Of a DNA stretch of 64,000 nt, positions 3,708 to 4,027 are shown one piece after another (the first letter of the stretch is position 1; every line of letters begins with the position of its first letter). The position numbers and the translations under genes were made by a program. The notes below the pieces were generated by a model. That model saw only the letters and a program-made list of their open reading frames with translations. It was not told the origin of the DNA and did not search any database. This stretch comes from Escherichia coli phage vB_EcoM_Shy. Where the stretch lies: sequence record MT833282.1; one strand, 5' to 3'.

Positions 3708-3736
3708 TTGACATTAAGATGTGACCACTTTATAGT
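3708..3736 (+). promoter_or_regulatory. sigma70-type promoter (TTGACA-17-TATAGT)
   Basis: near-consensus -35 (3708-3713) and -10 (3731-3736) with 17-bp spacer; followed by about 290 nt without a credible ORF before tRNA-Arg. Confidence 0.5.
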
Positions 3737-4027
3737 AACTAAAATACTTCATAATATGTATAATTCAAACACCAATACATGAGCGTTAGACGTAACACAA
3801 TGTGGGGAAATTTGTTGTACATATTCTGAATAGTTTTCGTTGCGTAGCGTCTATTTTGCAAATTTAAAATAAATGCAAACGACAATGTTTTCTGGCAGTA
3901 GCTTGATAGGCTAAACACCAGTGAGGTCTTCCAATCCCTCATCAAAGAATTTGGCGTACTCGCCCACGGTATGATTAATAAGGTGGGCATCTTTAAGGGC
4001 TTTCTAAGAGAGCCTTTAAAGATTAAT

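Follow-up and report, generated by a model that had tools for sequence, protein, structure and literature searches.

What is transcribed from the consensus promoter that lies inside the tRNA array of Escherichia coli phage vB_EcoM_Shy? The locus considered here comprises positions 3,708 to 4,027 of a 64,000-nucleotide (nt) stretch of sequence record MT833282.1; this whole stretch was analysed and is called the window below. The locus sits between tRNA-Ile (3617-3692) and tRNA-Arg(UCU), in an array of 26 genes (2281-7361). The phage is a Felix O1-like one (Felixounavirus), and BLAST searches showed positions 3000-4700 of the window to be 95-98% identical to many such genomes. An earlier reading, made from the letters and their open reading frames (ORFs) and referred to here as the sequence-only reading, had noticed the promoter, about 290 nt of non-coding sequence behind it and a palindrome just before tRNA-Arg.

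On the comparative evidence gathered here, the stretch is an unannotated, widespread and conserved structured RNA gene of phages. Its 5' arm (3831-3859) is, as judged by complementarity, antisense to the template of host transfer-messenger RNA (tmRNA), and its 3' half (3860-3988) resembles the message part of tmRNA. The RNA may well dock on host tmRNA and block its template, probably substituting its own; our confidence in this is evenly balanced. The consensus promoter and the non-coding nature of the stretch behind it, both put forward by the sequence-only reading, held up, while the identity of the transcript, a structured RNA gene with a putative anti-tmRNA half and a tmRNA-like tag template, had been overlooked. 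The features discussed below are listed in Table 1.

Table 1. Features of the RNA locus and its borders, with positions in the window.
Feature	Position	Strand	Content or basis
Sigma-70-type promoter (predicted)	3708-3736	+	TTGACA (3708-3713), 17-nt spacer, TATAGT (3731-3736)
Optional 5' leader	3737-3830	+	Long hairpin ending just before the seed
Anti-tmRNA arm (predicted)	3831-3859	+	Co-fold, duplex energy, antisense ssrA alignments
A/U-rich single-stranded linker	3860-3874	+	AAAUUUAAAAUAAAU
tmRNA-like tag frame	3875-3906	+	GCA AAC GAC AAU GUU UUU CUG GCA GUA GCU UGA in relatives
Helix-5-like hairpin	3892-3921	+	Helices 1 and 2 of alignment A2: 98% and 86% of cells paired
H-type pseudoknot	3922-3954	+	Helices 3 and 4 of alignment A2: 98% and 97% paired
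Conserved motif	3953-3960	+	GGCGUACU; GGCGCACU in most families; nearly invariant in alignment A2
Hairpin H3	3962-3988	+	Variable stem GCCCAC/GUGGGC, conserved 15-nt loop GGUAUGAUUAAUAAG
Terminal hairpin (ttaaag/ctttaa)	3989-4023	+	Inverted repeat I4, 17-nt arms, 88% complementary
tRNA-Arg(UCU)	4028-4104	+	ARAGORN; Rfam, 62.8 bits
83-amino-acid ORF, not a gene	3739-3990	-	Length peculiar to this copy

Complementarity of the 5' arm to host tmRNA

Complementarity to E. coli tmRNA resides in two segments of the arm: the seed UAGUUUUCGUUG (3831-3842) faces nt 95-106, and GCGUCUAUUUUGC (3847-3859) faces nt 77-91. The most conserved 5' element of the RNA was (U)AGUUUUCGU, which is exactly complementary to CGAAAACUA within tag codons 3-6 of E. 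coli ssrA. The arm spans tmRNA nt 77-106 in the window and nt 56-107 in lambdoid, Klebsiella and Kuttervirus relatives. Besides the resume codon, the longer segment takes in UAGUC, which sets the frame, the first six tag codons and the 3' portion of pseudoknot 1. Arms of every family could be aligned with the reverse complement of ssrA via GCGAC (complement of GUCGC at the resume codon) and a U-run; in families with long arms this antisense alignment extended through GCGG-CUUUUUA.

Pattern scans of IMG/VR yielded 127 copies of the element, of which 61 were non-redundant at 93% identity. A plain 14-mer scan of the same database returned mostly chance matches and was replaced by a gapped 24-base pattern, which biases the collected copies towards LAVA-type tags. 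Duplexes of the 61 arms with full-length tmRNA displayed a median energy of -42.1 kcal/mol against -29.6 kcal/mol for shuffled arms (mononucleotide shuffles; dinucleotide shuffles were made for seven representatives), with a median z of -4.4 and z below -3 in 49 copies. The best site on tmRNA fell in or overlapped nt 56-107 in 60 copies and lay wholly inside this segment in 55. A perfect seed of 8-11 nt to tmRNA nt 96-106 was present in 55 out of 61, and one somewhere on tmRNA in 57; the duplex with host tmRNA was stronger than that with the copy's own message in all 61. In its complementarity beyond chance and its conserved seed, the element thus behaved as an antisense small RNA.

Pairing coverage differed along the target. 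The host-specific AGUCGC (86-91) and CGAAAACU (98-105) were paired in 52-60 of the 61 copies, and coverage fell to 17-42 copies at nt 92-96, inside GCAAACGA, which is common to host and phage messages. Since nucleotides specific to the host were paired and shared ones formed a dip, the arm appears to tell host from self. Under dinucleotide shuffles, the arm of the window reached -27.1 kcal/mol vs -20.7 +/- 2.3 kcal/mol (z = -2.9, with 2 of 200 shuffles as good), and z-values of -5.7, -4.3 and -3.5 were obtained for L033, MK54 and FEC14, respectively.

Most of the sampled Enterobacterales genera had the same target segment (smpB-ssrA loci were fetched for 80 species; the Salmonella locus obtained did not include ssrA), an invariance that accounts for the invariance of the seed. 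A laboratory anti-ssrA oligonucleotide, 5'-TTAAGCTGCTAAAGCGTAGTTTTCGTCGTTTGCGACTA, covers the same site and blocks tmRNA in cell-free systems (PMC6340945; PMC3384345). In short Felix-like copies, in Erwinia phage phiEa21-4 and in T5-like contigs, a -10 box was found 7-8 nt upstream of the seed, and (A)GUUUUCG should therefore be the 5' end of the RNA in these short forms.

Resume context and tag frame of the 3' half

The linker leads into a tmRNA-like resume context, AAAAUAAAU followed by GCA at 3866-3877, in which U3870 and A3871 stand at -5 and -4 of the resume codon and are the equivalents of U85 and A86 of tmRNA. Both nucleotides have a role at the tmRNA resume site, A86 being the main determinant of frame (PMC2481249). 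The Rfam tmRNA model aligned AAAAUAAAUGCAAACGACAA to its consensus AAAAAAUAAuUGCaAACgAcaA around the resume codon with high posterior probability, and the permuted-tmRNA model likewise aligned the resume region. Scores stayed below the gathering threshold of 47 bits in both cases, amounting to 13.7-17.3 bits for tmRNA (RF00023), the alignment covering model positions 56-294 only, and to 13.6-26.3 bits for permuted tmRNA (RF04321).

The frame opened by the resume codon (ten codons and a stop) was intact in 126 out of 127 copies. Of the 28 other Felix-like copies, 25 read ANDNVFLAVA* and another two differ from it by a single substitution. Elsewhere, ANEEMYLAVA (HK633-type phages), ANDEQFLAVA, ANDNTFLAVA, ANDTQYLAVA, ANDDVVLMAA and ANDDLMLAAA were encountered; ANDAQFLAVA was read from the sequence of Erwinia phage phiEa21-4 and ANDSEMRVAA from those of Bp10 and Aeromonas phage phiA050. 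The common pattern was AN[D/E]xx[F/Y]LAVA-like, with LAVA, LMAA or LAAA as C-termini. Among 60 non-redundant copies, codon 11 was always a stop (TAA in 56, TAG in two and TGA in two) and position 6 was Tyr or Phe in 54; the Ala codons differed at their third positions.

The window is a peculiar copy in this respect. Its T-run at 3888-3891 counts four Ts vs five in 27 of the 29 Felix-like copies, and its tag frame reads ANDNVFWQ*, with a stop at 3899-3901. Full (100%) identity to the window at this place was seen in a single GenBank record, MBP4696116; the missing T is either a homopolymer sequencing error or a recent mutation.

The likeness of the 3' half to a tmRNA message and its helix-5 loop would also suit a decoy that works independently of pairing with tmRNA, for instance by sequestering a factor such as S1, SmpB or RNase R; its antisense similarity would then be a relic of an inverted tmRNA fragment. 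Titration of SmpB has been proposed for a tmRNA fragment of mycobacteriophage DS6A that consists of the tRNA-like domain (TLD) only (PMC4131195). Such a relic, however, would not keep complementarity to host-specific positions in all families while its own message diverged, and the seed is the most conserved 5' element and lies at the inferred start of the transcript, which makes the decoy quite improbable.

Two further reading frames were considered and rejected. The length and end of an AUG frame inside AAAUGCA were not conserved and it had no Shine-Dalgarno sequence; for a second ORF that would stop at UAA UAA in the loop of H3, the differences in stem length between families were not multiples of three.

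Structure of the RNA

The plus strand folded to -82.6 kcal/mol against -58.2 kcal/mol for shuffles (z = -5.0), so that the structure prediction proposed by the sequence-only reading for the stretch 3' of the promoter did return a fold more stable than those of shuffles. Paired positions were counted on alignment A2, from whose own, mutually related sequences the structure had also been derived. In this alignment 92.2% of cells were paired, compared to 84.1% in column shuffles and 34-50% with slid partners. Changes on both sides were found in 15 of the 22 pairs, and the covariation score (0.271 vs 0.129) was reached by none of 500 shuffles.

The helix-5-like hairpin is composed of an outer stem CUGG/CCAG (3892-3895 with 3918-3921) and an inner stem UAGCU/GGCUA (3899-3903 with 3909-3913), and its loop presents the stop codon of the family. 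In the adjoining pseudoknot, stem S1 pairs UGAGG (3922-3926) with CCUCA (3937-3941) and S2 pairs the loop CCAA (3931-3934) with UUGG (3951-3954); six of its nine pairs displayed compensatory changes (CCGA/UCGG, CCAG/CUGG and CCAA/UUGG; GAGG/CCUC, AAGG/CCUU and GGGG/CCCC). The stem of H3 varied between families, with double changes in all four tested pairs (helix 5 of A2), while its loop was kept and holds the heptamer UUAAUAA, common to the helix-5 loop of tmRNA. Co-folding predicted eight base pairs (bp) between the motif at 3953-3960 and tmRNA GGUGCAUGCC (nt 40-49). In this model, tmRNA may be contacted a second time by GGCG(C/U)ACU, 3' of the pseudoknot, which would clamp the module at both sides.

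The defining domain of tmRNA comprises a 7-bp acceptor stem with G3-U70, a T-arm and an alanylated 3' CCA. ARAGORN, which also detects permuted forms, called no such tRNA-like domain in the window or in any of the 127 homolog segments (the motif with 300 nt on its 5' side and 600 nt on its 3' side); nor did the program call a tmRNA in the first four homologous loci. A single downstream pseudoknot was supported, the upstream region being occupied by the antisense arm. Judged by these characters (no tRNA-like domain, no pseudoknot 1 and a sub-threshold score), the RNA is not a tmRNA by definition.

It might nevertheless be the coding piece of a genuine split tmRNA, completed by a tRNA-like partner that the phage encodes as an orphan T-arm/acceptor module or as the element at 3203-3300 (both described in the last section). 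Modules with a T-arm adjoin the element in several families (FEC14, with an encoded CCA, as well as L208, L023, L033 and L041), the permuted tRNA-like element lies 500 nt upstream in the window and has a weak Rfam tRNA match, and natural two-piece tmRNAs exist (RF04321, with weak matches here). We hold this to be very improbable: besides the absence of ARAGORN calls, no useful complementary CGAAAAC-type partner strand for the RNA 5' end was found in the window, no module shows G3-U70, the re-joined halves of the permuted element were not recognised as a tRNA and the modules, unlike the anti-tmRNA arm, are not conserved between families. They fit better as RNase P/Z punctuation that frees the RNA from long transcripts.

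Distribution among phages

A sensitive BLAST search with 3693-4027 matched GenBank records of phages belonging to many families, at least 625 in all. Identity was about 80% over some 95-125 nt in phages unrelated to Felix-like ones, and the matches nearly always fell in unannotated DNA, although some records annotate a 'hypothetical protein' at the locus. Matched phages included lambdoid phage HK633, Klebsiella siphovirus MK54, Kuttervirus and other Ackermannviridae, a 110-kb T5-like phage, Schitoviridae phage TR2, Chaseviridae phage Bp10, Erwinia phage phiEa21-4 and Aeromonas phages. Lambdoid prophages with relatives of the element were present in 93 out of 5426 complete E. coli genomes.

The genomic setting varied. 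In HK633 and E. coli prophages, the element occupied the gap between the late antiterminator Q/pR' and the holin gene. It was preceded by its own promoter and placed 5' of tRNA-Arg(UCU)/tRNA-Met in MK54 and Aeromonas phage pIS4-A, and was found near tRNAs in Kuttervirus. An origin as an attP or genomic-island tmRNA fragment was considered and rejected: the element occurs in virulent phages, covers the message and not the 3' end of ssrA, and differs from the host sequence.

Rfam searches at permissive thresholds, covering the window and relatives, returned only sub-threshold matches to tmRNA and permuted tmRNA and no family for the RNA. Full-text literature searches, including searches with the sequence itself, yielded no description of such an RNA; their coverage was incomplete and an earlier description is possible. 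The tmRNA Website paper lists phage ssrA only for mycobacteriophages and Bacillus phage G, plus the TLD-only fragment of DS6A (PMC4131195).

Promoter, leader and transcript ends

The promoter was present on the plus strand as the sequence-only reading had given it and was conserved in relatives: in other Felix O1-like phages the homologous element has the same promoter upstream, and comparable ones were found 5' of the element in Erwinia phage phiEa21-4, T5-like contigs and Klebsiella phage MK54. With a score of 11/12, it was the best sigma-70 match within the first 9 kb of the window. Promoter-like matches in these 9 kb were, however, at chance level (20 vs 20.3 expected from shuffles); because a match score by itself proves nothing under these circumstances, the call rests on conservation.

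No plus-strand ORF of more than 38 amino acids overlaps 3708-4027, in agreement with the claim that about 290 nt behind the promoter hold no credible gene on that strand. These 290 nt did not prove to be a single unit. The leader (about 95 nt) was displayed by only six of the 29 Felix-like copies and by Chaseviridae phage Bp10, and was absent from 20 'short' Felix-like copies. In the minimum free energy (MFE) fold, 3748-3764 of the leader pairs with 3813-3829 (compare inverted repeat I3) and UAGUUUU is left unpaired. Its conservation across Felix-like phages and a Chaseviridae phage indicates that it behaves as a separate mobile RNA module. The leader hairpin itself was conserved between Felix-like phages and Bp10 (L307, 488-566), with an inner stem that appeared compensatory by eye (GUUA...UAAC vs CCUU...GGAGG).

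Transcription would proceed from the consensus promoter jointly with the downstream tRNAs, and no terminator-like site was found within 3737-4027. The 3' end of the RNA would probably be defined by the RNase P cut at the 5' end of tRNA-Arg (4028). The palindrome reported just before this tRNA is a true inverted repeat (3989-4023) and matches by position the closing hairpin module of relatives, GGTAAGAGCA...TGCTCTTTCC or TAAAGGGTA...TACCCTTTA.

The promoter, the lack of a terminator, the tRNA directly after the stretch and the recurrence in the array of hairpins with related loops agree with what the sequence-only reading had pictured, namely a promoter and the untranslated leader or spacer of a tRNA operon, with palindromes as processing signals and no function of its own. 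This is scarcely credible for an element that is also encountered with no tRNA next to it (for example between Q and holin in lambdoid phages, or in phages of the Schitoviridae and Chaseviridae) and that covaries across the family, keeps its tag frame and possesses an anti-tmRNA arm.

The opposite-strand reading frame

A small protein gene on the minus strand could be suspected from the presence of the ORF of 83 amino acids at 3739-3990, from its match to phrog_26260 and from the 'hypothetical protein' annotations in some GenBank records. The sequence-only reading had dismissed this ORF, rightly so: it is the product of a 1-nt deletion in this copy and exists because the missing T fuses two antisense frames. 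In 27 of 28 Felix-like relatives the longest antisense ORF reached about 40-49 amino acids or less, neither the length nor the frame being conserved as in a protein gene, and the leader indel and the T-run indel break it in relatives. It runs antisense to the entire transcription unit, and nucleotides are conserved there in a pattern that follows the RNA pairs and the tag frame of the plus strand. No Pfam match was obtained, and phrog_26260 (a 46-position profile of unassigned function; E = 3e-26 over residues 1-36) was the sole family matched. The probability of a protein gene here is considered negligible. Phrog_26260 is itself probably a spurious family that arose from ORFs called on the wrong strand of the RNA gene.

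Mode of action

Trans-translation is the main bacterial pathway of ribosome rescue and quality control and an antibiotic target, and phages such as lambda-immP22 and Mu depend on it. In the mode of action proposed here, the exposed seed UAGUUUUCGU would anneal to the single-stranded tag template of host tmRNA, and the resulting heteroduplex would silence that template on the principle of the anti-ssrA oligonucleotide in cell-free translation. The phage resume codon would come to lie about 12-15 nt beyond the end of the heteroduplex, a helix that would stand at the place of pseudoknot 1. Host alanyl-tmRNA-SmpB would still rescue stalled ribosomes, and translation would resume on the phage template, adding the phage tag (e.g. 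ANDNVFLAVA). In tmRNA, the resume codon is located 12 nt after pseudoknot 1, and activity is retained when this pseudoknot or the tag template is replaced (PMC2481249).

Such a takeover in trans, in which an RNA of Enterobacterales and Aeromonas phages puts the host tag template out of use and offers a resume codon and tag frame of its own, host and virus together making up a heterologous two-piece tmRNA, is put forward tentatively, with confidence somewhat short of even. Template substitution is the most economical reading because the frame, the stop, the tag-like peptide and the frame-setting nucleotides are all conserved.

The main rival is a pure inhibitor, whose arm would block tagging or rescue, or direct RNase III cleavage of tmRNA, and whose tmRNA-like half would stay untranslated, serving as an imperfect internal mask until strand exchange or as a stabilising scaffold inherited from a tmRNA fragment. 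The complementarity of arm and tmRNA applies equally to it, antisense oligonucleotides to the same site inhibit trans-translation in vitro, and a duplex of 30-50 bp is a plausible RNase III substrate on general grounds. Moreover, the MFE fold of the window pairs the arm with its own resume region (duplex with its own message, -15.6 kcal/mol), a self-pairing that is weak and concerns the first codons only. An inhibitor leaves unexplained the exact ten-codon frame, the stop kept through changes between TAA, TAG and TGA, the tag-like termini (AND/ANE...LAVA, LMAA, LAAA) with an aromatic position 6, and the persistence of U-A at -5/-4 in phage families otherwise unlike each other. It is regarded as unlikely, though to be taken seriously.

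Several points weigh against template substitution. Every functional step in it is inferred from sequence. The loading of ribosomes onto a template held to tmRNA by a heteroduplex of only 30-50 bp is questionable, and this duplex could be cut by RNase III. The copy in the window is frameshifted and carries the 95-nt leader, and its short arm is only moderate by energy (z = -2.9, 2/200); the short arms of T5-like phages, L041 and L086 were not significant (z = -0.6 to -0.9), with the best site unchanged. The invariant host target deprives a host-phage covariation test of power. Conservation of the frame and tag is partly confounded by structural constraints and by descent from tmRNA, and the collection patterns fixed AAATGCAAACGA, so that the invariance of that motif arose partly by construction.

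Comparison with known systems

The RNA shares with tmRNA (RF00023) a GCA resume codon preceded by an A-rich single strand that has U-A at -5/-4, a predicted tag of about ten codons (frameshifted in the window) with an AND/ANE start and an Ala-rich hydrophobic end, a stop in a helix-5-like loop and an H-type pseudoknot after it. In contrast to tmRNA, it lacks the acceptor stem, T-arm and CCA as well as pseudoknots 1, 3 and 4, measures about 160-200 nt instead of 363 and has a 5' end that is antisense to tmRNA.

Two-piece tmRNAs are encountered in alpha-proteobacteria, some beta-proteobacteria and cyanobacteria (RF04321 and relatives). They likewise have a coding chain that is separate from, and base-paired with, the chain bearing the aminoacylated 3' end, an arrangement that is proposed for the phage RNA. 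Their pieces, however, come from one gene, the coding piece providing the 5' acceptor strand and helix 2, whereas the proposed partner of the phage RNA is a complete host tmRNA, paired at its message region and not at the TLD or helix 2. The acceptor piece that stands 5' of the coding piece in such genes has no counterpart here, the phage RNA beginning with the anti-tmRNA seed.

The anti-ssrA oligonucleotide of ribosome display and cell-free translation, which is used against the release of stalled ribosome complexes by tmRNA, is complementary to the same tmRNA segment and contains GTAGTTTTCGTCGTTTGCGACTA. It is a synthetic DNA of 38 nt with perfect complementarity and no template, while the phage RNA is a putative natural transcript with interrupted complementarity and a fused surrogate template. 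Phage tmRNAs (mycobacteriophage Bxz1 group, Bacillus phage G and huge phages) and the DS6A fragment are also tmRNA-derived phage genes presumed to manipulate trans-translation, and DS6A shows that a phage can keep a partial tmRNA. They are either complete or, in DS6A, restricted to the tRNA-like domain, unlike this RNA, which would be composed of the message domain only and an antisense arm.

With trans-acting antisense small RNAs of phages, the RNA has in common a short non-coding transcript, a 5' seed and a promoter of its own (predicted here). It differs from them in its proposed target, tmRNA and not an mRNA, in a complementarity far longer than a typical seed, in the lack of an intrinsic terminator and in its conserved tag frame. 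Like the stable RNAs of the T4 tRNA cluster (species 1 and 2), it is embedded among tRNAs and is probably matured by tRNA-processing enzymes; no sequence relation to these T4 RNAs was seen among the BLAST matches.

A phage RNA aimed at the tmRNA template would represent a new class of host take-over factor and the first natural antisense regulator of tmRNA and, if the tag swap is true, the first template supplied in trans to tmRNA. Its carriers include Felix O1-like, Kuttervirus, T5-like, N4-like and lambdoid phages used in typing or therapy, as well as prophages of enterohaemorrhagic E. coli. The locus is unannotated, or misannotated as a hypothetical protein, in hundreds of genomes and was missed by Rfam and ARAGORN. 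It makes testable how a resume codon is chosen, to what extent the covalent architecture of tmRNA is needed and why phage tRNA arrays contain non-tRNA RNAs.

Other elements of the tRNA array

The sequence-only reading had listed similar palindromes elsewhere in the array and taken them for a recurrent processing or regulatory signal. Those at 3056-3093 (I5) and 4598-4687 (I1) are real inverted repeats, while that at 6246-6278 is weaker (6+3 bp by eye). The hairpins are thus real and recurring; a role in punctuation or processing is plausible, although peripheral to the RNA. The loop 10-mer TTCTTACGAG was found exactly in the palindromes at 3056-3093 and 6246-6278, about 0.1 exact matches being expected in 64 kb, and once more on the minus strand at 17196-17205. 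In Erwinia phage phiEa21-4 (L222, ~568-600), a hairpin with a TTCTTACGAG loop lies directly after the homologous RNA and before tRNA-Leu. Hairpins with this loop look like shortened forms of the closing modules of lambdoid and Klebsiella relatives (loops TTCT...GAG).

Orphan tRNA-like modules, composed of a T-arm with a TTCGAnT loop and an acceptor-like helix, accompany the RNA element in other families, as in FEC14 (L003, ~2165-2232) and, upstream or downstream, in L033, L041, L023 and L208. The module of FEC14 (Kuttervirus) has an encoded CCA and a GAAA-capped stem in place of the anticodon arm; those of lambdoid prophages sit inside a repeated ACAACAGGTAAGRGCA...TGCTCTTTCCGTTGTG helix. The orphan modules may serve as RNase P/Z punctuation, a job that real tRNAs can do in the window.

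Four intergenic elements of the window (2443-2530, 2611-2687, 3090-3170 and 3178-3310; possibly also 5100-5190) have common ends, 5' CAGAAGACC-NN..CAGCAA and 3' NNGGTCTGG, and the nucleotides beside GACC/GGTC co-vary (I14, I17). These elements gave no Rfam match. Enclosed in the fourth CAGAAGACC...GGTCTGG element, positions 3203-3300 resemble a circularly permuted tRNA: after a T-arm (GAAGGTTCGATTCCTTC) and the 3' acceptor strand ACTCGGC there is a gap of 4 nt, and then come the 5' acceptor strand complementary to the latter, GTCGAGT, and a normal D-arm. Rfam gave a weak partial tRNA match, and no tRNA was called by ARAGORN when the two halves were re-joined in 1,664 combinations.

The non-coding gap 4105-4342 contains a weak tRNA-Sec-like match at 4249-4323 (23 bits) without an ARAGORN call, and the gap 4433-4688 ends in the inverted repeat I1, with 26-nt arms, just before tRNA-Leu. 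Between the permuted element and tRNA-Lys, a 22-nt inverted repeat (I2, 95% complementary) encloses 98 nt at 3313-3454, which is probably another structured non-coding RNA.

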